Below are positions 2,921 to 31,931 of a stretch of DNA of 32,000 nt, piece by piece (within the stretch, counting starts at the first letter, position 1; every line of letters begins with the position of its first letter). Source of the DNA: Nostoc punctiforme PCC 73102 (lineage in GTDB: Bacteria; Cyanobacteriota; Cyanobacteriia; Cyanobacteriales; Nostocaceae); the NCBI RefSeq assembly GCF_000020025.1, contig NC_010628.1:3240001-3272000 (forward strand), in the 5' to 3' direction. Position numbers and translations under genes: made by a program. The notes under the pieces were generated by a model. The model saw only the letters and a program-made list of their open reading frames with translations, made no database searches and was not told the DNA's origin.

Positions 2921-3484
2921 TTATCGGCGACTGAAATAAATTGAGGTTGGGCGGCGAGAATAAGCTTCAGTCCGATCACGGGTGAGTAAGTAGCCTGCCG
3001 TGCCAAGGGCTGCCCCAGCTAGAGCATATTTACCTTTATTAGCTCCAAGATGACCTAACACTCCACGCCCAGCCCGCTTGGAAGCAACAGCAATATCACC
3101 ACCAATTTGACGAGCGCCTGTGGCAATATTTCCCGCACCAGCTTTAACGCCTGGGGAGACGATTTTATTGATCGCCCTCTTTGATTGACGTAAACCCTTT
3201 TTAACGATCGCTATTCCACCACGCTTAGTTTTTCTGAGGAAAGTTGGGGCATCTCTAGCGGCTTGTTTTACCTGCTGAGTAATGCTTTTTGAGGCACTAG
3301 AAGCGAATGGATCGGACACTGCCACCGCACCTGCTCCCGGTCTAAATTTGCTGGGCTTTATCGCCACGTTCTCGGCTACCGCCACACCTCCACCACCTCT
3401 AGCACGCCGACGACCCGCCCCTATTTCGGCAAATTCTGCATACTGAGTTTCAATATCCCGCATGGTAAATAAAATTACCGCCAT
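2921..3484 (-). CDS. Basic Gly/Ala/Arg-rich hypothetical protein with a C-terminal hydrophobic segment
   Basis: 187-aa ORF. Its ATG overlaps the upstream TAA (TAATG at 3486-3482), suggesting translational coupling. Contains GAGRRRARGGGG and YALAGAALGTAGYLL. Confidence 0.6.
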   Translation of the reverse strand: MAVILFTMRDIETQYAEFAEIGAGRRRARGGGGVAVAENVAIKPSKFRPGAGAVAVSDPFASSASKSITQQVKQAARDAPTFLRKTKRGGIAIVKKGLRQSKRAINKIVSPGVKAGAGNIATGARQIGGDIAVASKRAGRGVLGHLGANKGKYALAGAALGTAGYLLTRDRTEAYSRRPTSIYFSRR

Positions 3485-4392
3485 TACTTACGCCTCCTTC
3501 TTTTAAGAGTGACAGTGTTGCTTGTAAATTCTGCATTATCGCCCTCATCTTCTGAATACTGCTGCACGTATTCTTGGGGCATCTGCTGATAAGGGTCAAT
3601 TTTAATAGGTTGTGGTTCTTGTATGACCATTTCTGCTGGTTCTTGGTCTAACCCCAATAGTTCCAGCAAATCTGCGTAAAAGTCATCAACCGCTTTTAAT
3701 CTAAGCGCATCAGGAGTGATACCGATCATGTCGTTCCCGTCGGCTGATTCAATGTCACCAATCACGCGAAACAAGATATCAAAGCACTCTTGTGCTTCCC
3801 CCTTGAGACGGGCAATTCTGCCTTGCTGTTCTTTGGCTTCGGCGTAGCTCAAGTTAAAATAAGCGCGACTGCCTCCGTCATCAGCGCGGAATAAAGCAGG
3901 CCCGTGAATTGCTGGGAACGCAACAGAAGACACTTCTGCAATCCGTTCTGTATCTAAATCGATACCTGGGGATAAAGGTTTTATTAATCCTTTGCGTACC
4001 TCGTCAACATAATGGTTGATGTAAAACTTACCAAACATCCCAAATTTGCCAATCAAATCCCGCATTTTGGGATTGGGCAAATCGCGTTCTTGAATAATTC
4101 TCCCCTCTACACGAGAATGGAGTTTACCAAGTTTATTAAATCCACCGTTGGGGTTGACCAAGGTTTTGGCATGGTCGATCATCAAAGGAATTTCTACCCC
4201 AGAGTCAAAAGCCGCATTCGTGTTGTCTGTCAGCTGTTGTACTCTGTGGGATGGGAATTCATGAACCCTTCCTTTATTATCTTTTTGTGTTCCCTCAACC
4301 AAGAGAAGGGCATTCTTAATTAAAAAATCACCCTGCTCGTAGCTGCCAAACGCAACTAACCCACCGGCTGAATCAAAGTAAGCCTTGCTCAT
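3484..4392 (-). CDS. Putative prohead protease / scaffold protein
   Basis: The track ORF 3484-4539 is trimmed to the ATG at 4392 (MSKAYFDSAGG...), because the longer form overlaps the opposite-strand HTH gene. The N-terminal ~200 aa (LVEGTQKDNKGRVHEFP...VEIPLMIDH...SPGIDLD) look like a Mu-I/HK97-type protease. The acidic helical C-terminus ending in RRRRK looks scaffold-like. The position between MuF and capsid fits. Confidence 0.45.
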   Translation of the reverse strand: MSKAYFDSAGGLVAFGSYEQGDFLIKNALLLVEGTQKDNKGRVHEFPSHRVQQLTDNTNAAFDSGVEIPLMIDHAKTLVNPNGGFNKLGKLHSRVEGRIIQERDLPNPKMRDLIGKFGMFGKFYINHYVDEVRKGLIKPLSPGIDLDTERIAEVSSVAFPAIHGPALFRADDGGSRAYFNLSYAEAKEQQGRIARLKGEAQECFDILFRVIGDIESADGNDMIGITPDALRLKAVDDFYADLLELLGLDQEPAEMVIQEPQPIKIDPYQQMPQEYVQQYSEDEGDNAEFTSNTVTLKRRRRK

Positions 4393-4478
4393 ATTAAAAA
4401 CAGATTGAGTTTTCACCAATCTGCTAACAACTCGACTGACAATAGTATTATCTTTTTTATGACAAAGCGCCATACAGT

Positions 4479-4721
4479 ATGACAGATTGCCATATTTTAA
4501 GAAAGTTGAAGCAGGCAAGATTGGATGCAGGATTGTCACAGCTAAAAGCCGGGAAGTTCATCCATTGTTCTCAATCAACGCTTTGCAAAAAAGAGAGAGG
4601 CGATCGCCGCTTCTTTGCTGAAGAACTATTGCAACTTTGTTATCTTTATAAGATATCCCCGAAGGATTTTATAGAAAAACGTAGAAAGAGGTCAAAAAAG
4701 AAATCAGACATTAAAGGATAA
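4479..4721 (+). CDS. XRE-family helix-turn-helix transcriptional regulator
   Basis: 80 aa, ATG start. LRKLKQARLDAGLSQLKAGKFIHCSQSTLCKKERGDRRFFAEELLQLCYLYKISPKDF is an HTH_3-type pattern, followed by a basic tail. It is encoded antisense to the surrounding head operon. Confidence 0.7.
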   Translation: MTDCHILRKLKQARLDAGLSQLKAGKFIHCSQSTLCKKERGDRRFFAEELLQLCYLYKISPKDFIEKRRKRSKKKSDIKG

Positions 4722-7700
4722 TTATGGATTTCTTAGAGATCGCATCTGTACTTGCATCTCTTGAACTTGCCTGTAATCATCCCCAATTTTTTTAACTAAA
4801 TCTACCCTTTTGGCTTGCAAACTATCAATTTCATCAGATAGCTTGATTGCTCGTTGCGACAATCCCCCACCTAGTATTTGCTGCTGTTCTTGCAATCTCA
4901 CTAACTGCTGATTGACGGTTGCAAGTTGAGATTGAGAAGAGGCGATCGCCCCTCTAAATTCTTCAGTACTGCTTTTAAGTTGTTGAATTTGCTGATAGGC
5001 TTCATCACCTAGCTTAAGGTCTTTGATATCTTCACCCACACCCTTCATCTGCTGTCTTGTCTGCTCAAATAAATCTCGTTTTTGGGCGAGTGCAATCTCA
5101 TTTTTAGTTGTACCTTTGCCCTGTTGTTTGAGTAAATCTATTTCTTGATTGAGGTCGTTGATTTCTTTAAAAGTGTTGCGAGATGTGGAATCAAGGGCAT
5201 CTAATTGTTGTTGAGCCTTAACTACTTTGGGGTTAGTTGATACCGCAGGGTTAGTAAATTGTTTGCTGTTAACAAGTCCTTTTAATCGTTCTTGGGTTGC
5301 TTGTAGTTGTTTTTGTAATTCCTCTGCACTGGTAGCTTTACCCTTGAGATCAAAGGTGGGTATGCGGTTAGCGTCATAGCGTAGGCGCTCGTAAATATCC
5401 TTGGCATCTTGATACGCTTGCTCAATAGTTTGGGATTGGTTTACACGAGAGTTACCTAACTGTTGCAGGAAGGTTTCGTTAGCTTGTTGGTATTGGTCGT
5501 AAAGTTTTGTAATGGGTTGAGAGGCGATCGCCCCAGGTTTTGCAGTGCTACCAATTACATCTTGATACCGTTTGCTCCATTCCTCCATATCAAGCAAAGT
5601 TTTCCTTGCATATCCATAAGCATCATCTGGAGAGATTTGGCGGAATAGCTCGGTGAGTGCGGCGTTATCTTTTTTATCAATAGCTTTTTGGATCTCTCGC
5701 TGTAGTTCGGTTAATCGATTGTTTGATGATCCGATGTTGCTGGGGTTGAGAGCGGCGTTTCGTGTTGAAAGCCAGTAGGTTAAATTGTCTTCAGCATTTT
5801 TGAGCAAGTCGTCAAAACCCTGAACTTTGCGGTCTGAGTTGATAAACCTAAACTCAGTATTACGTTTAACAACTTCAATGTTGGCTTCAATCTGTTTCGT
5901 TTTATCCCACAAATCAGATGCCATTTTGCGGATCTGGGCGAGTGACTTGGAAGTTGTGGGAGCGCCGTTAAGAACTAAAGATAAATCGCGGGGGATGTTG
6001 GCAGTATCCCAACCATTGAAACCAAGCAACCATGCCACCGTACCTTCAGGCATTGATTCTAGTTCTCGCATATCGGCTTGGATTTGTGACAATCGCCGCT
6101 CAATTACTGGGGCAGTGTTACCCTCAAAGCCTTGATATTGCTCATCGTAGCGGTTGTAAAAGTTTTCTTGATTGGTGGCACGGTTATTTAAGTTGCGGGT
6201 TGCCGCTTCATCGGCGCGGCGGTAAAGTTTCGCACTGCTTTGCATTCGGCGCTGTACAGTGCGGAGGTCTTTTACAGTGTCGTACTGGGTTCTAAGTTCT
6301 GGTTCTAGCTGATTTTTAGTGACTGGTAGCTTGGAAAGTCGTTGTTGTAATTGCTTTAACTTTTCGGCAGTAGAAGCGATCGCCTGATTTGTTTGTTCAA
6401 TCGTGTTAATAGCACCCCTAGCAGTGTCAATTACTGGGTTGGTGTAATCATTTAACTGGTCTGATACGGTTCTAATTTGGTCGATGGCATCAGACTGCTG
6501 ACGCTTGAGGCGTTGGAGTTCTAGCCATGCTTGGGAGCGTTCCGCACCGGGGGGAAGCCTAGAAACCTGGGATTCTAGAGTTTGGATTTTGGTATTAAAT
6601 TCTTCTAGGTTGGTGCGGAGATTATCAGCAGTTTTTTGGGAAGTGACAGCAGCGCGTTGATTGTTGAGTTTAGTTACTCGCTGCTCTATTGCGTCAACTT
6701 TCTCATTAATTTTGGCAGCATACTTATTATTATTTTCAATCGCTCCATCAATAGTTTTGGTAGCTTTTTGAAGTTGAGCGCGGATTTGGGCGATGCTAGC
6801 GGGCGCTTGTTCAAAGTAGTTGGGCTTGGTGGGGTCAAGTAGGTTTTGGTAATTGTCCTCGACACTGGCTAACCGTCTATCCCATTCAAGTAATTGGTCT
6901 TCTACGGTAGAAACTTGCTGATTGAAACTACGAAAACCATCAACAGTATTTTGAGTGTCACTGGCTTGCTGTTTGAGTGACTTACCAAATAATTCTTTAC
7001 TGTTTAACTGATCGTTGGCAGTTTTGACAGATGCTTGATTGAAGTCGTCAACACCACTCCGAATCCCTGACAGTTCTTGTTTCAAAGGATCGGTTACAAT
7101 TGTTGGCACTTTTTGAGGTATTACTCGCTCCGGTGGTAATCCAGAAGTGGAGTAAGGTAACGGTGCGCGTGGTGAAATAGCATTACCAGCGCTTACATCT
7201 GGTGGTAATAAATCCTCCCCTGCCCCCCTGCCCCCCTGCCCCCCTGCCTCTCTTACTGGTACAGTTTCCTTAACTGGCGAAAATTGCCGAGGGATAACTA
7301 CAGCGCGTTGCTGCATATTCTCAATGGTGCGATCGCCTATACCTTTGCCTTTAAGTCGAGTTTTTAAATCCTCAATATCTTTGAATGAACCTTTTTGCAG
7401 TTCGTTGAATATGGTTTCGGATTGCGATTTGGTCAACCCCAGATTAGCCGCCCATAACTGTGTAGGCGTGCGAATGCTTTTAGGGTCAAGTAAGGGGATA
7501 ATTTGATACCCTTCTGAGAGTTGCTTTAATCGCTCAAAGGTTTTTGCTCCAATTTCGGGGACGTTTTTTAAGTCCTCAATTTTGGTAATTGCTGACTGTT
7601 CCCGGCGCTTGAGGATCGCATTTACTTGGCGGACAGTAAGCGATCGCCCTGGTAATATTTTTTGCAATTCTTCACGAGTCGCGGTATTGATGTCAAGTTG

Positions 7701-8939
7701 CCCTAGTAATACCAAGGGTGTTACTGTTTCCCCTACTTCCTGTTGTTGCTGCGCTTGGGGTTGCTCCGACGCTCGTTCGCGCAGCGTGCCGGAGGCAGGA
7801 CTCGCTACCGCTTCGCTATCAGCAACGGGTTCAGTTACAGGGGCTTTCTCACCAATCTCAGAACGGATTTGAGCAATTGCTTCAGCAAGGGTTATACCCG
7901 CCGCCGCAGTCGTGGTCTGTCCGGCGGCTCGTGCAATGGTTTGAATAGGTGTGATTGTTTTCCCGACTAGTACAGATGCAAGAATTCCAGCAGCCGCCCA
8001 TAAAATTGGGCGCGGGACTAGTTCGCGGTTTTGTACAAAGCGATCGCGATCTTTTAGTTCAGGAGATTTTTTGAGTACTGGACTTAGCACGCAGCGACAT
8101 CGAGGATGAATTGCTGGAGTATTAGCCGCGATCGCTTGCCAATCATTCAACGGAATAACCAAGCCGTGACGAGAAGCGCAAATATTACACCGTCTTTCGT
8201 CAATTATTGTGTAAAATCTAACTGCTTCAACTAATCCAGACTCGCGGTAAGTCTCTAATCGTCCAGCGTTGTAAGCAAAAGTCAACTCAGTACGAGCAAT
8301 GGTTTCAGCGCGTTTTGAATACCTGCCAGATTTAGTGCCTAGCCTTTCCTCAATGCGCTTGAGTAGTTCATTCCTGCTTATGGGTTGCTTGGTGTCGGGC
8401 TGTGGGGTGACTGCTGCGAGTAAGTCTTGCTGAATCTTTTTGTACTCCGAGTTTGTTACGTCTTGTGCTAACTGGTTAATCCGTCCCCTAATTGCGCTTT
8501 CGGCGGGGATGTTGCGGATTGGTCGGATTTGTACACCTGGTTTTTGTGCATCGTCAAAATAAATCAGGTTAGAGAATGAGTTAAAGTTGACTTTCCTGTT
8601 TGCGTTTTTTACCTCTGTATCGGCGTGGTTACTTCCCGTATTCCAGCCGGATAACCAGATGGAGTACAGCGATCGCTTGAGTGCAGATAGCATATATTCC
8701 TTTACTTGTAGCGGGTTTTTCTGGTTCTTTTTTAGTCGGGTATTTCCGTCATCTGCGGTCGTGGTTTGCAACAAATCTTTATCAATAAATGCTCTTGCTG
8801 CATCTAAAGGAATGTTTGCTAACAACAAAGCACCTTTGGCTTCTAAATTATCTAAATCAGCTAATACTTTCTTTTCTCCCAAAATCAATTTATCGTTGGG
8901 GAATTGGGGAGCGAAAGCACTAAAAACTGAATCAAACAT
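4722..8939 (-). CDS. Giant (1405 aa) minor head protein: MuF/SPP1 gp7 domain + hydrophobic helix + ComEA-type HhH modules + ~800-aa coiled coil
   Basis: MuF motif at aa ~208-288: RAETIARTELTFAYNAGRLETYRESG...IIDERRCNICASRHGLVIPLND...IHPRCRCVLSPV. Hydrophobic segment PILWAAAGILASVLVG. HhH: LDINTATREELQKILPGRSLTVRQVNAILKRRE...IEDLKNVPEIGAKTFERLK, plus a second weaker copy (IEDLKTRLKGKGIGDRTIENM). From aa ~620 to the end the protein is Q/L/N/K/E-rich with heptad-like character. Confidence 0.8.
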   Translation of the reverse strand: MFDSVFSAFAPQFPNDKLILGEKKVLADLDNLEAKGALLLANIPLDAARAFIDKDLLQTTTADDGNTRLKKNQKNPLQVKEYMLSALKRSLYSIWLSGWNTGSNHADTEVKNANRKVNFNSFSNLIYFDDAQKPGVQIRPIRNIPAESAIRGRINQLAQDVTNSEYKKIQQDLLAAVTPQPDTKQPISRNELLKRIEERLGTKSGRYSKRAETIARTELTFAYNAGRLETYRESGLVEAVRFYTIIDERRCNICASRHGLVIPLNDWQAIAANTPAIHPRCRCVLSPVLKKSPELKDRDRFVQNRELVPRPILWAAAGILASVLVGKTITPIQTIARAAGQTTTAAAGITLAEAIAQIRSEIGEKAPVTEPVADSEAVASPASGTLRERASEQPQAQQQQEVGETVTPLVLLGQLDINTATREELQKILPGRSLTVRQVNAILKRREQSAITKIEDLKNVPEIGAKTFERLKQLSEGYQIIPLLDPKSIRTPTQLWAANLGLTKSQSETIFNELQKGSFKDIEDLKTRLKGKGIGDRTIENMQQRAVVIPRQFSPVKETVPVREAGGQGGRGAGEDLLPPDVSAGNAISPRAPLPYSTSGLPPERVIPQKVPTIVTDPLKQELSGIRSGVDDFNQASVKTANDQLNSKELFGKSLKQQASDTQNTVDGFRSFNQQVSTVEDQLLEWDRRLASVEDNYQNLLDPTKPNYFEQAPASIAQIRAQLQKATKTIDGAIENNNKYAAKINEKVDAIEQRVTKLNNQRAAVTSQKTADNLRTNLEEFNTKIQTLESQVSRLPPGAERSQAWLELQRLKRQQSDAIDQIRTVSDQLNDYTNPVIDTARGAINTIEQTNQAIASTAEKLKQLQQRLSKLPVTKNQLEPELRTQYDTVKDLRTVQRRMQSSAKLYRRADEAATRNLNNRATNQENFYNRYDEQYQGFEGNTAPVIERRLSQIQADMRELESMPEGTVAWLLGFNGWDTANIPRDLSLVLNGAPTTSKSLAQIRKMASDLWDKTKQIEANIEVVKRNTEFRFINSDRKVQGFDDLLKNAEDNLTYWLSTRNAALNPSNIGSSNNRLTELQREIQKAIDKKDNAALTELFRQISPDDAYGYARKTLLDMEEWSKRYQDVIGSTAKPGAIASQPITKLYDQYQQANETFLQQLGNSRVNQSQTIEQAYQDAKDIYERLRYDANRIPTFDLKGKATSAEELQKQLQATQERLKGLVNSKQFTNPAVSTNPKVVKAQQQLDALDSTSRNTFKEINDLNQEIDLLKQQGKGTTKNEIALAQKRDLFEQTRQQMKGVGEDIKDLKLGDEAYQQIQQLKSSTEEFRGAIASSQSQLATVNQQLVRLQEQQQILGGGLSQRAIKLSDEIDSLQAKRVDLVKKIGDDYRQVQEMQVQMRSLRNP
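7217..7248. repeat. In-frame octamer tandem repeat (TGCCCCCC x3 on +; GGGGGGCA on the coding strand), G-quadruplex-type motif
   Basis: Sequence cccc tgcccccc tgcccccc tgcccccc tgcc. The coding strand reads GAGGCAGGGGGGCAGGGGGGCAGGGGGGCAGGGG and encodes EAGGQGGRGAG inside the giant ORF. Confidence 0.9.
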
Positions 8940-8947
8940 AATATTTT

Positions 8948-10306
8948 ATGACAACTATTGAAAACTCAAGTAAGCTAATTCCTTTATACGCCACAGAGTT
9001 AGCGCCGTGGTTAGATGAGCTTGATACTGATTTTGTAAGAGAACTTCCAGAAACAGGGGAGACTTACACCCTAGAAGATTTGATCAAGATGATCAAAATC
9101 TGCGTGGTAAATAAAGCGGCGATCAACTTAAAAACCATGAGAGCGGCGGCGGCGGTTGGACTTTACTCCCATAATGACCCTACCCCATATCCTACTGCGA
9201 CAGGCCCGCAAACAATTCAAGAATGGATGCGCGGGAATTTTGACTCCATGAAAGGAAGTCTCCCCGCAGTAGTACGGAAGATGATTAAGCAAGCTTATAG
9301 TCTGGGAACTTCTTGCGGTGAGATTAGATGGTATAAGCGCAAAACTAGTCTGGGTTCCGAGTGGCGATTAAAGTCAATCCCTGTACTTAACCCTCTGCGG
9401 TATTCGTTCGCTGGAGTTAAGGGTAGGGTAGATCGGATTATTTACCGCCCATTGCATGATTCTTCAAAAGCTATACCCTACGCAAAGCTACTTCACATTT
9501 ATTCACCATCACTTGAAGAGCCGGAAGATCCACGGGGCGATCCGGCGGCGGCTTCTGCTTTGCCATTTTACAAATCGCGGCAGATTATGTACAAGCAGTG
9601 GACGCAAGCCGGACAAAGACAGGCCACTGGATTCACAATAATCAAAGCTCCCAGCGAGAAAACAGTAACAATTTTAGGGTCTAATGGCTTACCGCTAAGA
9701 AACGACGATGGTACAATCAAAACTCAACCAGCGCTTTATGCAGCTGTTTCATCAGCCAAAAATATTGAAAATGGCAGCGTTTTCGGAACCGATAAAGAAA
9801 ACGATGTGATTAATGTTCCGGGTGGTGGTGGGGAAGGATTTTTTAATCTTTCACTTACTCACTACGAAAAAATGATTTTCTATGCTTACGGCGTGCCATC
9901 AACAATTTTTAATGACACGGCATCAGGTATTGGGAATTCCGGGATTAATGCCGGACACCGACTAATACTTGATACCCAAATTGAGGATATTGTGAATGAT
10001 TTAAGGGATGAGCTATTAGAAAAAATTGTACGTCCTTTGCTCATGGCTAACTTTGGCCCCAAATTTGAGGATAATTTGGGTGAGTTTAAATCAGATAAGT
10101 TCCTTGACCCGTCACTAGCGGCGACTAGAGTTAGTAATTTGACTATAGCAATGTCCTCTGGGACAATTGACGCAAACGACCTTGAAGCAACTAATAGACT
10201 GCGTGAAGATTTGGGATTGTCGCCATTTACTAAAGAACAATTTGACCAGCAGCAGCTTGCAAAACTATTGGCACAGCAAGAGCAGCAATATGGCGAAGGG
10301 TATTGA
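8948..10306 (+). CDS. Phage portal protein (Mu gp29/DUF935-like, tentative family)
   Basis: 452 aa, ATG start, the size and position expected for a portal next to a MuF gene. Acidic/Q-rich C-terminus (QFDQQQLAKLLAQQEQQYGEGY). No decisive motif was seen, so the family call is tentative. Confidence 0.6.
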   Translation: MTTIENSSKLIPLYATELAPWLDELDTDFVRELPETGETYTLEDLIKMIKICVVNKAAINLKTMRAAAAVGLYSHNDPTPYPTATGPQTIQEWMRGNFDSMKGSLPAVVRKMIKQAYSLGTSCGEIRWYKRKTSLGSEWRLKSIPVLNPLRYSFAGVKGRVDRIIYRPLHDSSKAIPYAKLLHIYSPSLEEPEDPRGDPAAASALPFYKSRQIMYKQWTQAGQRQATGFTIIKAPSEKTVTILGSNGLPLRNDDGTIKTQPALYAAVSSAKNIENGSVFGTDKENDVINVPGGGGEGFFNLSLTHYEKMIFYAYGVPSTIFNDTASGIGNSGINAGHRLILDTQIEDIVNDLRDELLEKIVRPLLMANFGPKFEDNLGEFKSDKFLDPSLAATRVSNLTIAMSSGTIDANDLEATNRLREDLGLSPFTKEQFDQQQLAKLLAQQEQQYGEGY

Positions 10307-10471
10307 TTGGAATTATGTAAAGTCGTACTAGAAGCATAGAAGCATGAGATTTTTGTGTTTTAAAAGTTGAGAAGGGGCGATCGCCCCCTAACTTGTAGGA
10401 AAAATATTATGAAATGAGAATCCTCTAAACTTAATCCATCTCTTTGGTGGCAATTAAATCTCGATGGTGGA

Positions 10472-10956: not shown

Positions 10957-11022
10957 CCGATTGCTTTATCAAATCGATGTTATGCAAAATGCTGAAAAAT
11001 TATTGTAGAGGGGCGATCGCCT

Positions 11023-11325
11023 ATGAACAAAGATATAACTATAGTTCCCGCAGATTATCATTTTGAGATTCCTGAAGAAATTGCTAAATGTCCATACTGT
11101 GAGACAAAACTTCATGTTCAAGTGCATGGGTGGACAGAAGAAGATGACGGATGGGTTGCTGATTCGATAGAAATGGTATGCGAATCTGAGCCAGATATTG
11201 ATGACGATGCGTGGGATGATTTCAATGAATCCCATAGCGAAATGCCTTATGTTTATTTGCTGCCAGTGCAAAACACAGTACAGGAGTGGATTAACAATAA
11301 TTTTCGGTTTGATATGGAGCAATGA
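11023..11325 (+). CDS. Hypothetical acidic protein with a CxxC motif
   Basis: 100 aa, ATG start. Contains CPYCETKLHV and an acidic stretch EPDIDDDAWDDFNESH. Its stop overlaps the next start (ATGA at 11322). Confidence 0.55.
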   Translation: MNKDITIVPADYHFEIPEEIAKCPYCETKLHVQVHGWTEEDDGWVADSIEMVCESEPDIDDDAWDDFNESHSEMPYVYLLPVQNTVQEWINNNFRFDMEQ

Positions 11326-12745: not shown

Positions 12746-13240
12746 TTGTCGGAATTAAACAAGCAAGAGGCTTTAAAGTATTTAGGGGTAAGCGATCGCA
12801 CCCTGGAGAGATGGGTGAAAAAGTACAAAATCGCTGTGAGGTATGAAAATACTGATAGGGGGCGATCGCCTTTCTTTGACATATCAGAATTAGATAGGGT
12901 AAAGCTTGAGCGCGACCCCACTTATCGCCCTGCAATTTCGACGGGACTAGTGCCAGTTACTGTTACTCAAGAGGAGCGATCGCTTGCTGCAATTGCTGAA
13001 AGCTTAAAAACAATTGCTTGCGCCACCTCAAGCATTACTGCCTATTATCAAGTAGCAGCTATTTTAGCAAAGAAGTCTTTGAGCATAAGAGAAGCTGCGA
13101 TAATGTCAGGTTTATCTATAAACTTTTTGAAATACCATTTAAAAACGGGTAACTTAGTAGGCAAGAAATTAGGTAGGTCTTGGAGAATTTGCCCTCAAAG
13201 CTTTGAGCGTTTTATGGTAGATATTTTTAAAGAGACATGA
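12746..13240 (+). CDS. DNA-binding protein with two MerR/excisionase-type HTH domains (candidate excisionase/RDF or small terminase-like)
   Basis: The only in-frame start is TTG at 12746. N-terminal LNKQEALKYLGVSDRTLERWVKKYKI and C-terminal LSIREAAIMSGLSINFLKYHLKTGNLVGKKLGRSWRICPQSFERFM both fit the HTH_17/excisionase pattern. Confidence 0.6.
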   Translation: MSELNKQEALKYLGVSDRTLERWVKKYKIAVRYENTDRGRSPFFDISELDRVKLERDPTYRPAISTGLVPVTVTQEERSLAAIAESLKTIACATSSITAYYQVAAILAKKSLSIREAAIMSGLSINFLKYHLKTGNLVGKKLGRSWRICPQSFERFMVDIFKET

Positions 13241-22738: not shown

Positions 22739-22933
22739 CTAATCCAGTGGTTTCTGGTGAATTGTAGCTTCTACAACTTCTATTAATTTGTGAGCAATAT
22801 TCCTGATAAAGATAATTCTTGGGTGTTGGCTATTAAGCAAAATCTCTTCATCTGTTGTGTAACCATAATGCTTGGCTTGAATCGTTAAAAAGCTTATTAA
22901 CAAATCCTCTTTTTGCTTGTAGCTGAATTTCAT
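22739..22933 (-). CDS. Hypothetical small protein
   Basis: 64 aa, with an ATGA overlap onto the HAD gene. Confidence 0.5.
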   Translation of the reverse strand: MKFSYKQKEDLLISFLTIQAKHYGYTTDEEILLNSQHPRIIFIRNIAHKLIEVVEATIHQKPLD

Positions 22934-23481
22934 GAATCACCTCCAAATTCTTTGCGCCAATTTTCAGCCCACATGAATTTGCATTCCATAGCCGAAGCAC
23001 ATTCCAAATCTTCAGGGCGATCGCCCACCATAACCATCTCCTCAACATCTTCACCACCATCCTCTACAAACAGTTTCACAAGTTTAAGCATTCCTGCATT
23101 TGGTTTGCGAAATTCCCCAATTAATTGCATTTCTCTATCACTAGTTTCGTAGGCATCAAACTGAGAAACTTTCCAGCAATCGTTACCTTCAAAATCGGGA
23201 CAAAAATAAATTGCTGTTAATTGGGGCAGTAGTTCAAGGGTGAATTGCATCTCAGCGATAGTGCCCTCAATTGTTTTGCGAGGTTTACCTGTTTCTGGAT
23301 TAATTGCAGCACATCCGCCTTGATTAGAGATTCCCACAATTAGCCATCCCAACGCAGCAAAGTGCGCGATCGCCTTATCTGCACCATCAATTATTTTTAC
23401 ATCAGTTGGCGACTGCTTAAAAGTGTGTCCACTGATGGTTTCTGTTAAAGTTCCGTCAATATCGACAAATAAAATGTTCAT
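22930..23481 (-). CDS. HAD-IIIA family phosphatase (GmhB / HisB-N / polynucleotide 3'-phosphatase-like)
   Basis: All four HAD motifs are present: FVDIDGTL, VGISNQGG, FRKPNAGM, MVGDRPEDLE. Confidence 0.75.
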   Translation of the reverse strand: MNILFVDIDGTLTETISGHTFKQSPTDVKIIDGADKAIAHFAALGWLIVGISNQGGCAAINPETGKPRKTIEGTIAEMQFTLELLPQLTAIYFCPDFEGNDCWKVSQFDAYETSDREMQLIGEFRKPNAGMLKLVKLFVEDGGEDVEEMVMVGDRPEDLECASAMECKFMWAENWRKEFGGDS

Positions 23482-23577: not shown

Positions 23578-24177
23578 TCAGGAGGGAATACCTCCAGCGC
23601 AACTATCAGACGGAAAAATTGAAGCAGGAGTAATATTGATTGGCGTTAACAAATCCGAATAATTACGTAAAATGCCTCCAATTGTAACTGTCTTTACATT
23701 AGGTACTCTTTGAGATAATTGCAAAATAACTGCTTCATTTGAGCAATATTTCGCAGATTCAGATATTAAACCTATCAATAAATCTTGCTCAGGGTTTAAT
23801 CTTTTTACACTTACAGTTGGACTATAGTCAACCCTTAAAGACCGCTGCCACACTTCAGCCCATTTCTTTTGCGATAAATACCCGTGACCAAAATACGAAG
23901 CTTTCACTATCATTAAAATATGAAAGCAAGGGCGAATATTACCACCACATCTTTGAGTCACCTCAACAAACTTAATCCACCCTATTCCTGGGAAAATTTT
24001 AAGCTTAACTAACCTACGAAGTGATTCGTTCATCAAATCTAAAGTTGTTCGTAACAATTCATCGGATGAACAGTCATTCGCCAGAAGAGTCAAAGATACC
24101 CACCGCGCATTGGAATAATCAGCCAAAATCTGAGGTAAAATTCTATAAATTTTATTTTTTGCATGAGACTTTACCAA
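23578..24177 (-). CDS. Rolling-circle replication initiator-like protein (pC194/pUB110 Rep_1 type), N-terminally short with a non-ATG start; possibly a pseudogene
   Basis: Motif 1 WVSLTLLAND (compare FLTLTxxN). Motif 2 RPCFHILMIV (compare HPHFHVLI, with Cys in place of the first His). YF..GYLSQKKWAEVWQRSLRVDYSPTVSVKRL. Motif 3 ESAKYCSN (compare ExxKYxxK). The only possible starts are TTG 24177 or CTG 24180. It is in the same frame as the upstream ORF, separated from it by TAG-GAA-TAA. Confidence 0.55.
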   Translation of the reverse strand: MVKSHAKNKIYRILPQILADYSNARWVSLTLLANDCSSDELLRTTLDLMNESLRRLVKLKIFPGIGWIKFVEVTQRCGGNIRPCFHILMIVKASYFGHGYLSQKKWAEVWQRSLRVDYSPTVSVKRLNPEQDLLIGLISESAKYCSNEAVILQLSQRVPNVKTVTIGGILRNYSDLLTPINITPASIFPSDSCAGGIPS

Positions 24178-24753: not shown

Positions 24754-25665
24754 TTATCGTGTTTTGTGAATATCTGGAAATTTTCTCACTTGTAAATCTT
24801 CTGGAAACTCTGAAATATCGCCACCTTTGCGATCGCTCGTTTTAAATTGGTAATCGGTGCTTGGTACGCCAGCGATATAAGGCAATGATTCGATACAATT
24901 ACTGCCCAACTGTTTTACAAAAACTGGAACCTCAGCAGCTTGACACTGCCTAGTAAGCGATCGCACCCAGTCGATGTGGCAAACTCTTGCATCTTTCCCT
25001 GACTCACCACCAACGATGACCCAATCTGGTGATGATTCCCACCTTGACCCTACTTTTAAGGCAAATTTACCTTCCTCATATTCATACAGCCCAAATACCT
25101 CAGATAAATCGATTTCTTCTAAAAGCGGTTCACAACTAAGAAAACGCACCTTAGCAGGAATTTGCAATAGAATAGGAATGCGTTTGTCTGCCATTTCTTG
25201 ATTTTCACAAGTTACTCCAAACCACACATTTTTAAGTGGGAGTTCTGGCTTACAAACTAGATTTCCAGCATCTTTAATTCTTTGCGCTAAATTAAAATTC
25301 TGAAAATACTTCAGAGCGTTCAATGGACGTTTAGTTAAAACCTGGAATATGTGCCAGTGCGCTGCTGCCATTATTCCGAAAACGCGATCGCGCCACTGGT
25401 CTGGCACGTTTTCATGGAATAAATCGCTCATTGAGCAAACAAATATTCGTTTAGGCTTCTTCCATGACAAAGGCTTGAGTAGTGCCGATTCTGCAAATTC
25501 TACAGTTCCATTCCAATCTTTTACTTTTTGGTATTGTGGAAATTGTTGCAGTCTTGCGGATGCTGCTGCTGTGGATGCATAGCAATTTTGACATCCTGCG
25601 GAAATGCGAGAACACCCAACTATCGGGTTAATAGTCTCATCTGTCCAAGAAATATTTGTACTCAT
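24754..25665 (-). CDS. Phage Gp37/Gp68 family protein (DUF5131)
   Basis: The N-terminus TNISWTDETINPIVGCSRISAGCQNCYAS, FVCSMSDLFHE, FQVLTKRP, WFGVTCENQ, FLSCEPLLE and DWVIVGGESG form the characteristic pattern of this family. Confidence 0.8.
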   Translation of the reverse strand: MSTNISWTDETINPIVGCSRISAGCQNCYASTAAASARLQQFPQYQKVKDWNGTVEFAESALLKPLSWKKPKRIFVCSMSDLFHENVPDQWRDRVFGIMAAAHWHIFQVLTKRPLNALKYFQNFNLAQRIKDAGNLVCKPELPLKNVWFGVTCENQEMADKRIPILLQIPAKVRFLSCEPLLEEIDLSEVFGLYEYEEGKFALKVGSRWESSPDWVIVGGESGKDARVCHIDWVRSLTRQCQAAEVPVFVKQLGSNCIESLPYIAGVPSTDYQFKTSDRKGGDISEFPEDLQVRKFPDIHKTR

Positions 25666-29992: not shown

Positions 29993-31333
29993 CTAAATTT
30001 TAAAAAGTACCGAACTAACCACTCCGTCTTTAATAATCACTTTTTCTATCAACGCCCGAAATATTACCCGCTTTTCATCATCTGGCAGCGTATGCCAATA
30101 CAAAGGATCGGGGAACGATTTGAGCATATCAATTCTAGAATCAGTTTCAACTTGGCGATCGCCCAAGCTATAAACAAATTCATTGATGCGTCGCTGTAAC
30201 TTGGTTTTTGCATCCTCAATGTCTGGATCGTACCCTAATTGAGATAAAGCAGTTAGGCGCGATCGCAGTTGCATCAACTCTTGGGGTTCTATGGTGGTGG
30301 CGGTAATACCGGCAAAATTAACAATTTCCCTAGATTTTTTGACCAACATTGAAATCACTGCATCTTCCACGATTTCAATACGCGGCGTGCGTCGTTGTGA
30401 ACAAGTTTGAGATTGAATGCGCTGTTTGCGGCGGCGACAATAAACATAGATTCTTTCATTAGGGGCAGTTCCCCCGTGTGCCACGGTCATCTTAATTTGG
30501 CATTCGCCGCAGAACATCAACCCCCCCAAAGGATACTGTCTAGCGATGCGGTTTTGGCCCCAGTACTGTTTGTTATTTTGGAAAATCTCACAAATGACCC
30601 GATATTCAATTTCAGTCATCACCGCTTGATCGGAATGGGTATTGTGAATTATGGTTTCCCATTGTTCGTAGGTGCGATTATAGGGTGTGTGTCCTCGGAG
30701 CGTGGGATTAAGCAACCAGCGCCGCAAACCGTTGGCCGTCCACTGCTTACCATATTTCTCATCAATTAATCGGCAAGCGCCTTGGAGCGATCGCACCGCC
30801 AAAAATGCCTCAATTTGACCACGGGCGTTGACTTTGGGGTCAAGTTGGTATTTTTCATCTACTCGAATGTAGCCGTAGGGTGGCTTAGGATTAGCTTTTA
30901 CCTTTTCACGGAAGTATTCAAACCCCTTTTTAATCCTCATACTCAGCATTCGGCTTTCAAATTCGGCATTTAGCCCAGCTTGACTGCGCTGTAGCCATTG
31001 ATAGGGATTAGCAAGGTCAATCAGTCCGCCAGCATCTAATATCTCTAGCTGCACTTCACACCGAAAAAATGTTTCTAAGATTTGCAAAGTTGTGATTCCC
31101 CGCCTTGTAATGCGATCGTCACGGGTAATGCACACACAACTTACTTGGCGCGATCGCACCAATGCCATCAATTTTTCAAATTCAGGTCGGTCATCATCAC
31201 TCCCTGATTGAATATCAAAAAATATTTCTTGGCAGCCAGCACGCTCTAGTCGGTTAATTTGTTGGGCAGCCGCATGAGTACAATCAGCTTGCTCGTTTGT
31301 CGAAACCCTTCCGTAACCTAGTTTTTGTTTCAT
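29993..31333 (-). CDS. Large serine recombinase (integrase), XisF/SpoIVCA/phiC31 class
   Basis: 446 aa. The N-terminus KLGYGRVSTNEQ is the catalytic Ser motif of the resolvase domain, with ITRDDRITRRG. The recombinase domain and Zn ribbon (FCGECQIKM...YVYCRRRKQ) and a C-terminal helical region follow. It is the last gene of the element. Confidence 0.9.
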   Translation of the reverse strand: MKQKLGYGRVSTNEQADCTHAAAQQINRLERAGCQEIFFDIQSGSDDDRPEFEKLMALVRSRQVSCVCITRDDRITRRGITTLQILETFFRCEVQLEILDAGGLIDLANPYQWLQRSQAGLNAEFESRMLSMRIKKGFEYFREKVKANPKPPYGYIRVDEKYQLDPKVNARGQIEAFLAVRSLQGACRLIDEKYGKQWTANGLRRWLLNPTLRGHTPYNRTYEQWETIIHNTHSDQAVMTEIEYRVICEIFQNNKQYWGQNRIARQYPLGGLMFCGECQIKMTVAHGGTAPNERIYVYCRRRKQRIQSQTCSQRRTPRIEIVEDAVISMLVKKSREIVNFAGITATTIEPQELMQLRSRLTALSQLGYDPDIEDAKTKLQRRINEFVYSLGDRQVETDSRIDMLKSFPDPLYWHTLPDDEKRVIFRALIEKVIIKDGVVSSVLFKI

Positions 31334-31370: not shown

Positions 31371-31931
31371 ATGATGGGAGTTGCTCTCAGTAATAAATGT
31401 AAATATGAAGTTGATAATCATCCTTGGCAAAATCCAATTACTACTGTAGGTATAACTGTGTTACCTAAAGGCGATTTATTGCATCACAAATTTGGTGTAA
31501 TAGATAGCCAAACAGTAATTACAGGTTCTCATAATTGGTCAGACGCTGCCAATAATGGTAACGATGAGACACTTGTAGTAATTGAAAATCCCATAGTTGC
31601 GGCTCACTATGTGCGAGAATTTGCTCGTCTTTATGCCAAAGTTAAACCCGGCTTACCACCAGCAATTCAAGAAAAGGTGAAATTAGAACAAACACGCTGT
31701 CCCCAGATCAAAAGTTCTTCATCAAGTGAACTACAAGCAATTAAACAAATAAATATTAATATTGCAAGTTTGCCAGAATTAGAAACTCTCCCTGGCGTGG
31801 GTAAGAAGTTAGCACAACGGATAATTCTTAGCCGTCAACAGCAAAAGTTTACATCTTTACAAGACTTAGAAAGAGTTCCAGGGGTTAAGGCGAAGACATT
31901 GGAAAAATGGCGCGATCGCGTGGTTTGGTAG
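31371..31931 (+). CDS. 3' portion of an interrupted host gene: PLD-family (HKD) nuclease domain fused to a ComEA-type HhH DNA-binding domain
   Basis: The HKD motif LLHHKFGVIDSQTVITGSHNWSDAANNGNDE starts at residue ~36 of the ORF, which is too close to the N-terminus for a complete PLD fold. C-terminus LPELETLPGVGKKLAQRIILSR...LQDLERVPGVKAKTLEKWRD. The frame stays open upstream to 31317, inside element sequence. Confidence 0.65.
   Translation: MMGVALSNKCKYEVDNHPWQNPITTVGITVLPKGDLLHHKFGVIDSQTVITGSHNWSDAANNGNDETLVVIENPIVAAHYVREFARLYAKVKPGLPPAIQEKVKLEQTRCPQIKSSSSSELQAIKQININIASLPELETLPGVGKKLAQRIILSRQQQKFTSLQDLERVPGVKAKTLEKWRDRVVW

Follow-up and report, generated by a model that had tools for sequence, protein, structure and literature searches.

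The window analysed here, a 32,000-nucleotide stretch of the Nostoc punctiforme PCC 73102 genome, carries a prophage of a Nostoc-like cyanobacterium, inserted there by a large serine recombinase. Its head module includes a giant MuF gene at 4722..8939 on the minus strand, which comprises 1405 codons plus a stop codon at 4722-4724 and begins with ATG, a start backed by the MxDSVF N-terminus that is common to the whole family in the alignment. The length of the product (1405 aa) and the reading frame reported in the initial annotation are borne out, but the strand is corrected to minus. As in SPP1 gp7 and Mu gpF, the gene adjoins the portal gene (8948..10306, plus strand), a member of the Portal_Mu family (Pfam PF06074, 29.6 bits against a cut-off of 23.9) and the partner on which the MuF domain presumably docks. 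The two genes are divergent, start-to-start and 8 bp apart, an arrangement that recurs in L001, L002, L005 and L022 and differs from the described order in which MuF lies immediately downstream of the portal gene (PMC5576092). On its other side the giant MuF gene lies upstream of protease/scaffold and capsid genes, the nearest being a putative prohead protease/scaffold gene (3484..4539, minus strand) with a weak match to the head maturation protease family phrog_976 (E 1.7e-4), which may provide the head module with a scaffold of its own. Syntenic genes of 287-301 aa occur in L004 and L022, followed there by further genes of ~190, 306-318 and 306-330 aa. The position beside the portal gene, with the same setting in relatives, upholds the earlier placement in a head module.

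The giant MuF ORF is one genuine, intact gene of the MuF/SPP1-gp7 minor head protein family. The initial annotation had raised the concern that a frameshift might artificially fuse several genes, and the unusual length, truncated or split versions elsewhere (P0005, and P0028 in L070) and an 8-bp tandem repeat that could cause frameshifts would fit an error in assembly or annotation, or a pseudogene in decay, joining MuF, ComEA-like and tape-measure or coiled-coil genes. We regard this as extremely unlikely: a corresponding single full-length ORF is found in no fewer than 10 independent assemblies, one of which is a finished chromosome, dN/dS is ~0.1 overall (~0.04-0.12 in each structured module) indicating purifying selection along the entire length, relatives hold separate tape-measure genes, and the C-terminal part never occurs as an independent intact gene. 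To the extent that sequence data can decide, the artefact reading is refuted.

As a whole the observation made in the initial annotation is confirmed, including the domain order that it read, namely a MuF core, a hydrophobic helix, a linker, a ComEA-like helix-hairpin-helix (HhH) unit, a second HhH unit and a long helical C-terminus, all encoded on the minus strand. The MuF core is preceded by an N-terminal helical region (aa 1-140; 8520..8939) with invariant W95, L96, G98 and G102 in the alignment and AF2 helices of moderate confidence at aa 22-59 and 76-98. The core itself (aa 141-300; 8040..8519) bears out the proposed MuF signature, with Pfam Phage_Mu_F matching aa 189-285 (E 9.7e-15, 55.7 bits against a cut-off of 29.6), PHROG 115/595/4728/241 (minor head/head morphogenesis) matching aa 183-300 only, and an invariant C251-x2-C254 ... 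H278-x2-C281-x-C283 motif. In homologues this core can be interrupted by inteins, either directly before C251 (P0004) or before C281 (P0035, P0038). The N-terminal 300 aa thus resemble SPP1 gp7 and Mu gpF in holding the MuF core and Cys/His motif (PF04233). Unlike these proteins as described, the giant MuF protein extends the usual small portal-binding MuF protein by three further parts: a hydrophobic helix, explicit DNA-binding-type HhH modules and a helical module of 780 aa, the last of which is new.

The conserved hydrophobic helix PRPILWAAAGILASVLVGK (aa 307-326; 7962..8021) follows directly. The earlier description of it as TM-like is supported by a Kyte-Doolittle 19-residue maximum of 1.8 at aa 307-325, the only peak of at least 1.6 in the protein, and by invariant W314, A317, L320, A321 and L324 in the alignment; most members of the family have an equivalent helix 30-100 aa past the HxxCRC motif. 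With ~15-17 apolar residues it is short, rich in Ala and Gly, and in the P0008 clade it is shorter still and below the usual TM threshold, and for these reasons its role could lie in packing against other protein parts and not in anchoring to a membrane. Its position straight after the portal-binding domain, a slightly higher positive charge on its N-terminal than its C-terminal flank (read from the sequence) and the tight start-to-start coupling of portal and MuF genes might point to a tether in the producing cell. During lytic growth the helix would insert into a membrane of the lysogen, cytoplasmic or thylakoid, and MuF would recruit the portal there, so that head assembly begins on the membrane, as in membrane-associated portal initiation in T4, with the HhH and helical modules lying across the membrane or serving as spacers. 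We consider such a tether doubtful, firstly due to the lack of a signal or insertion machinery context and a helix that barely suits SRP targeting and in one clade falls below the threshold, and secondly because it leaves unexplained two DNA-binding modules and a 780-aa module of pLDDT 86 with dN/dS ~0.08. We know of no MuF protein that acts in this way.

The helix leads into an acidic, disordered linker (aa 327-409; 7713..7961; pLDDT 25-39, pI 4.6), rich in A, T, Q and E in agreement with the low-complexity linker described earlier, and 21-35% identical among Nostoc homologues against ~90% in the flanking domains. The first (HhH)2 module (aa 410-478; 7506..7712) is of the ComEA type claimed previously, matching Pfam HHH_3 at aa 414-472 (E 1e-10, 42 bits against a cut-off of 27) and Geobacillus ComEA in the PDB (8dss, E 8e-5). 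It has a degenerate first hairpin (LPGRS) and a canonical second one (EIGAK; G464, K466 and T467 invariant among close relatives in the alignment), a dN/dS of 0.04-0.10 and a pI of 9.6. The second, (HhH)2-like module (aa 488-556; 7272..7478), suspected earlier as a weaker unit, aligns with the first in hhalign (95.3% probability, E 2.2e-8), carries the hairpins NLGLTK and GKGIGDRT with invariant W496 and G501, and evolves at a dN/dS of 0.04-0.06. Its Pfam HHH_6 match is sub-threshold here (aa 501-543, E 0.004), with E 1e-4 to 8e-4 in the relatives P0026, P0037 and P0038, and P0037 also matches Pfam HHH (E 3.7e-6, 26.9 bits against a cut-off of 24). The protein thus has two tandem ComEA-type (HhH)2 modules of basic pI with putative DNA-binding function. 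A second disordered linker (aa 557-625; 7065..7271; pLDDT 31-36) is rich in Pro (17%) and Gly (14%); the G-rich repeat noted earlier is a short GGQGGRGAG patch in this linker, and four perfect tandem copies of an 8-bp DNA unit at 7217-7248 encode it.

In membrane-anchored Gram-positive ComEA, the anchor comes first, a linker second and an HhH DNA-binding domain last, on the C-terminal side. The giant MuF protein has the same order, with its hydrophobic helix in the place of the anchor, and shares the (HhH)2 HHH_3 domain with ComEA structures (PDB 8dss, 8dfk). Its HhH part differs from ComEA in being embedded in a phage structural protein away from any com-gene context and in its tandem duplication with a degenerate first hairpin, and Pfam and PDB searches matched no part of ComEA outside the HhH domain.

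The remainder of the protein is a C-terminal all-alpha module (aa 626-1405; 4725..7064) with a dN/dS of 0.06-0.11. The continuous coiled coil proposed in the initial annotation proves to be all-alpha but not one coil: the AF2 model of its 780 aa (mean pLDDT 86.2) is segmented into ~20 helices of 20-82 residues folded back on one another, with turns and two tiny beta-hairpins. Conserved non-helical motifs include LLDPxxPNYF, WLLGFNGW, NIGSxNNR and FDxxGKA, and no hydrophobic segment is found (maximum Kyte-Doolittle value 0.45). Foldseek searches of PDB and BFVD with the model returned no match at E<=0.001, and the weak top BFVD matches include tape measures and minor tail proteins (best E 0.011, TM ~0.1); with no informative structural neighbour, any role for the module is a guess. 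A profile search of 1.84e9 representative proteins gave 56 matches, and in all the long, strong ones the module forms the C-terminus of a MuF protein. The initial annotation asked whether it also exists as a separate gene; no independent intact gene was present among the 56, and apparent stand-alone matches are a split gene (P0028 in L070) or a contig-end fragment. The module represents a new MuF-associated domain family, known solely fused to MuF.

Long and helix-rich like tape measures (PF10145 PhageMin_Tail), the giant MuF protein nevertheless lies in the head module and not between tail chaperones and distal tail genes, and it matched no tape-measure family in Pfam or PHROG. Related elements carry separate PhageMin_Tail tape-measure genes of 1741, 2641 and ~2714 aa, and the protein is for this reason not a tape measure; the possibility raised earlier of a tape-measure gene fused by annotation failed to refute the MuF reading.

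An elongated, highly charged all-alpha module resembles scaffolding and core proteins, and one fragment match bears a faint Phage_scaffold Pfam flag. Together with a gene located directly upstream of the protease/scaffold gene and HhH modules that could bind packaged DNA, this would suit a protein that docks on the portal and stays in the head, its helical and HhH parts organising DNA without being ejected, as an inner body, spool axis, auxiliary scaffold or size determinant ('ruler'). Such a capsid-resident role seems rather unlikely to us, since the next gene downstream already offers a separate protease/scaffold candidate, a protein confined to the capsid would have little use for a conserved hydrophobic helix or for the enzymatic cargo seen in relatives, and MuF proteins, at 1-2 copies per capsid (PMC5576092), are too scarce to form a scaffold or inner body.

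Full-length homologues at 31-77% identity occur in independent Nostoc and Nostocales genomes and in metagenomes, among them Nostoc sp. ChiSLP01 (77%), CHAB 5836 (74%), the complete chromosome of Nostocales HT-58-2 (50%) and metagenome homologues down to 31%. All named sources of C-module proteins are cyanobacteria, and prophages of filamentous cyanobacteria share the design. No full-length relative was found in cultured phages, whose MuF proteins match only ~aa 49-312 of 1405. The middle cargo varies among relatives between HhH, alpha/beta-hydrolase (Abhydrolase_6) and ART-PolyVal-like domains, the L005 relative carries a HEAAH-containing (HExxH-motif) extension, and one relative, from a Synechococcus MAG, has the classic MuF-ART architecture.

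This variation recalls MuF polymorphic toxins and polyvalent proteins, in which a MuF handle likewise precedes C-terminal cargo and the setting is a temperate phage, and the ART-PolyVal-like, alpha/beta-hydrolase and HExxH parts of relatives are like those of polyvalent proteins (Iyer et al. 2017), where metallopeptidase (MPTase) and ART are hub domains (PMC5512222). The C-terminal extension could on these grounds be an unrecognised injected toxin or host-takeover domain, as in MuF polymorphic toxins (Jamet et al. 2017): it far exceeds 100 aa, two thirds of MuF extensions have no known domains (PMC5576092), and relatives include hydrolase and ART-PolyVal-like domains and the MuF-ART fusion. 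We judge this very unlikely, because the C-module is not polymorphic but conserved at full length across the family under purifying selection, and 780 aa of helical hairpins are unlike known compact toxin domains. Moreover, the cargo is not a recognisable toxin or enzyme, no toxin domain was found with Pfam, PHROG or Foldseek in PDB/BFVD, and none of the Pfam polyvalent-protein families scored on the protein. The ORF listing contains no small co-directional immunity-type ORF downstream, and the adjacent 80-aa ORF encodes an XRE HTH protein on the opposite strand.

We posit, at roughly even confidence, that the giant MuF protein is a DNA-binding pilot or ejection protein, anchored at the portal and packaged in the virion, and a member of the MuF-fusion ('polyvalent') class; it would probably sit in the capsid and assist delivery of the phage DNA. 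The variable domains of relatives (alpha/beta-hydrolase, ART-PolyVal-like, HExxH extension) suggest a virion-delivered, cargo-carrying 'polyvalent' MuF fusion. MuF is accepted as a handle by which effectors are packaged and delivered along with DNA, and the link drawn earlier to MuF proteins with variable C-terminal cargo agrees with this literature (PMC5576092, PMC5512222). By analogy with SPP1 gp7, which is portal-bound, low-copy, DNA-binding and capsid-internal and promotes the start of infection (PMC6316719), we infer a capsid-internal ejection protein and propose the following mechanism. The MuF domain would bind the portal, as shown for SPP1 gp7, and thereby take the remaining polypeptide into the procapsid in few copies. 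Once packaging is done, the HhH modules would retain the double-stranded phage DNA close to the portal, whatever its sequence. During infection the protein would exit via portal and tail, before or with the DNA, its long helices and flexible linkers fitting transit through a narrow tube. The hydrophobic helix may then anchor it in the host cytoplasmic membrane, resulting in a ComEA-like membrane-tethered DNA-binding unit that could capture the genome as it arrives or ratchet it across the thick envelope of the cyanobacterium, with the C-module as the conserved structural body of the pilot protein. Several points weigh on the other side: the MuF core contains a Cys/His motif and beta-strands and would need to unfold unless it remained behind, the hydrophobic helix could bring the protein to membranes of the producing cell by mistake, and the first HhH hairpin is degenerate in a module whose DNA binding is putative. 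The initial interpretation as a capsid-internal ejection or 'molecular ruler' protein is in this respect partly supported, its ejection half corresponding to the pilot reading and its ruler half to the rather unlikely capsid-resident one.

T7 gp14-gp15-gp16, P22 gp7/gp16/gp20 and phiX174 H are large, mostly alpha-helical proteins, stored at the portal or in the capsid, that leave ahead of or together with the DNA and become associated with membranes of the host. In the pilot protein phiX174 H, a TM helix and a long coiled coil occur together. These proteins offer a functional analogy to the giant MuF protein, with no sequence or fold similarity detected (PHROG; Foldseek in PDB/BFVD). Unlike short-tailed T7 and P22, the phage group of the giant MuF protein has long tails and its own very large tape measures, and unlike T7/P22 core proteins a low copy number is expected; 1-2 copies of gp7-type proteins per capsid (PMC5576092) argue against a multi-subunit channel.

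A further HhH domain lies in the flanking host gene, a PLDc_2+HHH_3 ORF at 31371-31931 that is 5'-truncated relative to the Pfam profile. Identity to the giant MuF HhH is 37% over 59 aa, which does not indicate recent capture from the host gene, and coincidence, as the initial annotation allowed, stays the simplest reading.

The giant MuF gene is a single open reading frame of 1405 codons that runs from an ATG at 8939 down to 4722 on the minus strand, which amends the strand reading of the initial annotation. Its start can be regarded as fixed because the N-terminus of the product, MFDSVF, is nearly invariant across all relatives. Judged from its sequence, the product is a genuine MuF protein, as evidenced by a Phage_Mu_F domain (PF04233) at aa 189–285 (55.7 bits against a gathering score of 29.6, profile positions 13–111 of 112), by matches to PHROGs 115, 595, 4728 and 241 (minor head/head morphogenesis) that cover only aa 183–300 (E 1e-15 to 2e-21), and by a Cys/His motif (C251, C254, H278, C281, C283) that is invariant in the 16–21 family members aligned. 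The sole Kyte-Doolittle peak of at least 1.6 lies directly behind this core at aa 307–325 (1.8; PRPILWAAAGILASVLVGK) and is followed by an HHH_3 domain (PF12836) at aa 414–472 (42 bits against a cut-off of 27) and a Pfam match to HHH_6 at aa 501–543 that stays below threshold. The MuF signature, TM-like helix and ComEA-like helix-hairpin-helix (HhH) pair that had been read by eye are thus correct at the residue level according to Pfam, PHROG and Kyte-Doolittle analyses. The protein belongs to the known group of C-terminally extended MuF proteins, whose extensions mostly contain no recognised domain (PMC5576092). A structural model of its N-terminal 600 aa was poor (pLDDT 55.7), and a Foldseek search with that model was uninformative.

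A search of 5.8 billion proteins recovered 25 relatives, including full-length homologues in Nostoc genomes (74–77% identity), a homologue on the complete chromosome of Nostocales cyanobacterium HT-58-2 (50% identity), a metagenome homologue with 31% identity over 98% of the length, and a clade of ~1477-aa proteins with ~35% identity by local alignment. Module order is identical throughout an alignment of 16 sequences, in which W314, A317, L320, A321 and L324 of the hydrophobic helix, W496 and G501 of the second HhH unit, and F709 and L871 of the C-terminal all-alpha module (C-module, aa 626–1405) are invariant. Nei-Gojobori comparison with the two closest Nostoc homologues gave dN/dS ratios of 0.04–0.12 for the structured parts (MuF core, the two HhH units and the C-module in thirds), and higher values (0.2–0.3 or saturated) for both linkers, all of them rough because dS is ~1.3. 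The initial annotation had allowed for an artificial fusion of genes by a sequencing or assembly frameshift; this is rejected by the retention of a single open reading frame in independent genomes and by low dN/dS along its length. A decaying pseudogene is likewise excluded as far as sequence data allow. With tblastn against a phage GenBank collection only the MuF core was matched, at no more than 30% identity, and the full architecture was present in no cultured phage. What is new is the conserved order of hydrophobic helix, tandem ComEA-type HhH units and a novel 780-aa helical domain, so far found only in cyanobacterial sources.

A sequence search of the PDB with the giant MuF protein retrieved only the ComEA HhH domain, apart from spurious globin matches at E >0.01, and the first HhH unit (aa 410–478) matched ComEA structure 8dss at E 8e-5. 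Its second hairpin is canonical (EIGAK), with G464, K466 and T467 invariant among close relatives, and its first hairpin is degenerate (LPGRS). A weaker second HhH-like unit had also been proposed, and profile-profile comparison confirmed it: aa 488–556, with hairpins NLGLTK and GKGIGDRT, match the first unit with 95% probability (E 2e-8, 42 columns), and the second unit is therefore a tandem duplicate. Both units have a pI of 9.6–10, and the linkers are acidic. ComEA shares the HHH_3 (HhH)2 domain with the giant MuF protein but is a stand-alone protein encoded in a competence-gene context, whereas the units described here are embedded in a prophage head protein, which is not a ComEA orthologue. 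With 37% identity over 59 aa, the HhH of the flanking PLD-HhH host gene gives no indication of recent capture. In one related element (L004, 22229–22705), the genes 3' of the head genes include one for a separate HHH_3 protein of 158 aa.

The region between the MuF core and the C-module varies among relatives. Many carry HHH_3 modules there, while homologues P0032 and P0034 have one or two alpha/beta-hydrolase domains (Abhydrolase_6), and a GYSSGG nucleophile-elbow motif was recognized by eye in P0030 as well. P0032 also contains an ART-PolyVal-like domain below the cut-off (26.3 against 31.2 bits), and a 1803-aa IMG/VR variant (locus L005, 12290–13318) bears an extra C-terminal extension with a HEAAH motif and no Pfam match. 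Phage polyvalent proteins (Iyer et al. 2017) combine several effector or enzymatic domains in a single virion-packaged polypeptide, with hubs such as MuF, ART and MPTase; the giant MuF protein joins MuF to DNA-binding-type modules and has no enzymatic domain in Pfam. Most family members possess the hydrophobic helix 30–100 aa past the MuF core, with a shorter, sub-threshold version in the clade of P0008. Several relatives have inteins within the MuF core at two different sites, directly before the Cys aligning with C251 (CxxC) in P0004 and directly before the Cys aligning with C281 (CRC) in P0035 and P0038. P0034 is also intein-bearing in its MuF-core region. For actinobacteriophages, earlier work has reported inteins in minor capsid proteins of the MuF type (bioRxiv 10.1101/2025.01.02.630785).

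The C-terminus had been described as a continuous coiled coil of ~800 aa. An AlphaFold2 model of aa 620–1405 based on a 20-sequence alignment (mean pLDDT 86.2) upholds its all-helical character but not its continuity, as it comprises ~20 helices of 20–82 residues with short turns between them and two small beta-hairpins. As modelled, the C-module is a helical assembly folded back on itself rather than a single continuous coiled coil. A specific fold is also argued for by conserved non-helical motifs (LLDPxxPNYF, WLLGFNGW, NIGSxNNR and FDxxGKA). Hydrophobic 3.5-residue periodicity is raised only in patches (aa 617–728, 799–896, 1107–1120 and 1317–1330), and the C-module contains no hydrophobic segment (maximum Kyte-Doolittle value 0.45). 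Foldseek searches of the PDB and BFVD with the C-module returned nothing at E<=0.001; the weak top matches (best E-values 0.04 and 0.011, respectively; TM about 0.1) were unspecific long-helix proteins, among them SMC arms, designed bundles and tape measures.

A profile of the C-module is matched by very few proteins, with 56 matches at E<=1e-3 and 13 at E<=1e-30 among 1.84 billion representatives. In all long, strong matches, which are proteins of 1371–2434 aa, the module forms the very C-terminus, and every one of them has an N-terminal Phage_Mu_F domain. Two candidates for a stand-alone gene were rejected, the first being a fragment at a contig end and the second the 3' part of a gene that is split, its N-terminal part lying directly upstream. 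The C-module therefore defines a new and rare MuF-associated domain family, and every named source is cyanobacterial (Nostoc, Nostocales, Kastovskya and Trichocoleus). Identity to the Nostoc homologues is 78–84% with dN/dS of 0.06–0.11, and the full-length alignment of the module holds down to 23% identity. The possibility that it is a tape-measure gene fused by annotation was also rejected, given its position in the head module, the lack of a match to tape-measure profiles, and the presence in related elements of separate genes for tape measures of 1741 and 2641 aa (PhageMin_Tail), alongside an unannotated gene of 2714 aa.

An unrecognised toxin is a further reading of the C-terminus, as MuF polymorphic toxins are defined by an extension of at least 100 aa (Jamet et al. 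2017) and that of the giant MuF protein measures ~1100 aa. It departs from this class in the other three of the four features tested. Firstly, no C-terminal toxin domain was found in Pfam or PHROGs, nor any structural match; secondly, the C-module is conserved rather than polymorphic among close relatives; and thirdly, the place of a small co-directional immunity ORF downstream is taken only by an opposite-strand ORF of 80 aa with an XRE-type HTH (4479–4721, plus strand; HTH_31, E 4e-7), situated between the MuF gene and a prohead-protease/scaffold candidate. We disfavour a toxin because the C-module is conserved and an immunity-type ORF is absent downstream. The stop codon of the HTH ORF directly abuts the MuF stop codon, and the head module of L004 has a similar antisense HTH_3 ORF.

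By the usual definition, a MuF gene directly follows the portal gene (Jamet 2017; PMC5576092). Here the Portal_Mu gene (8948–10306, plus strand) does adjoin the giant MuF gene, but the two genes diverge, with 8 bp between their starts. This new arrangement recurs in related loci L001, L002, L005 and L022, with a gap of 0 bp in the first three, and implies that the promoter and ribosome-binding site of each gene lie inside the other. A promoter and terminator scan showed no difference from shuffled sequence. An invertible segment behind the divergent portal gene was rejected, as no flanking inverted repeats were found beyond HIP1-type palindromes. The more distant relatives L003 and L027 do show the co-directional order, the gene directly preceding MuF encoding 465 or 429 aa; in L004 the portal and MuF genes share a strand and the MuF gene comes first. 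Downstream of the giant MuF gene, the weakly supported prohead-protease/scaffold candidate (3484–4539, minus strand) is followed by three more minus-strand ORFs, all syntenic with genes of related elements.

MuF biology is largely uncharted: the one member that several experiments have addressed is SPP1 gp7, and the part of it that binds DNA is unmapped. SPP1 gp7 has been characterised as a DNA-binding protein that is dispensable for assembly, although the infectious fraction of virions without it is only about 25% (PMC6316719). In the published view, a MuF domain is a handle by which cargo at the C-terminus enters the capsid and is delivered together with the DNA (PMC5576092; PMC5512222). We posit that the giant MuF protein would be loaded into the capsid via its MuF domain, keep hold of phage DNA through both (HhH)2 modules and be released with the DNA on infection, whereupon the hydrophobic helix could tether the ComEA-like DNA-binding unit to the host membrane, with the C-module as the structural body of the delivered protein. 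The main caveats are that the hydrophobic helix is of marginal length, that the first HhH hairpin is degenerate, that MuF proteins are expected in low copy number and that the C-module has no informative structural neighbour in the PDB and BFVD. Alternatively, the protein could be a capsid-resident core or scaffold, or a producer-cell membrane tether for portal-initiated assembly. The family is a natural construct with a separable portal handle, membrane-type helix, DNA-binding domains and large helical body modelled with confidence, and hypotheses on MuF cargo in genome delivery are therefore directly testable with it.

Linker 2 contains a perfect tandem repeat, (CCCCTGCC)x4, at 7217–7248 (coding strand GGCAGGGG; aa 564–574). 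Gain or loss of one 8-bp unit leads to a predicted stop at aa 583–585 and hence to a predicted product with MuF core, helix and both HhH units but without the helical module. Three imperfect copies of the octamer occur in Nostoc sp. ChiSLP01 and none in two other homologues; the tract could be a site of slipped-strand switching or simply an STRR-like repeat. A bolder version of the delivery model, which we consider rather improbable, combines this switch with a phage that carries its own DNA-uptake receptor, a mimic of the natural-transformation DNA receptor. A portal-stored protein would exit the capsid and plant its hydrophobic helix in the host cytoplasmic membrane, and its two ComEA-type (HhH)2 modules, now periplasmic, would act as a Brownian ratchet pulling the genome from the tail across the thick envelope of filamentous cyanobacteria. 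The 780-aa helical module would serve as trans-periplasmic body, and the fourfold 8-bp repeat might switch between the full-length protein and a MuF-TM-HhH form of 583–585 aa.

The element belongs to a hardly explored group of temperate phages of Nostoc-type cyanobacteria. It ends with a large serine recombinase gene (Resolvase, Recombinase and Zn_ribbon_recom domains; 29993–31333) adjoining a 5'-truncated PLDc_2+HHH_3 gene that extends up to 31931. In heterocyst-forming cyanobacteria, the genes listed as carrying interrupting DNA elements include one for phospholipase D (PMC4874684), and the interruption element in the phospholipase-D-type gene here looks like a whole prophage. Its early region encodes a PNK3P/HAD-type phosphatase (22930–23481), a Rep_1 rolling-circle protein (23578–24177; E 3e-35) and a DUF5131 protein (24754–25665; E 3e-81), all on the minus strand. 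HIP1-type palindromes (GCGATCGC), which are typical of cyanobacterial chromosomes, occur in the prophage at 8032–8061 (inside the MuF gene), 10376–10390, 11003–11030 and 12856–12875.
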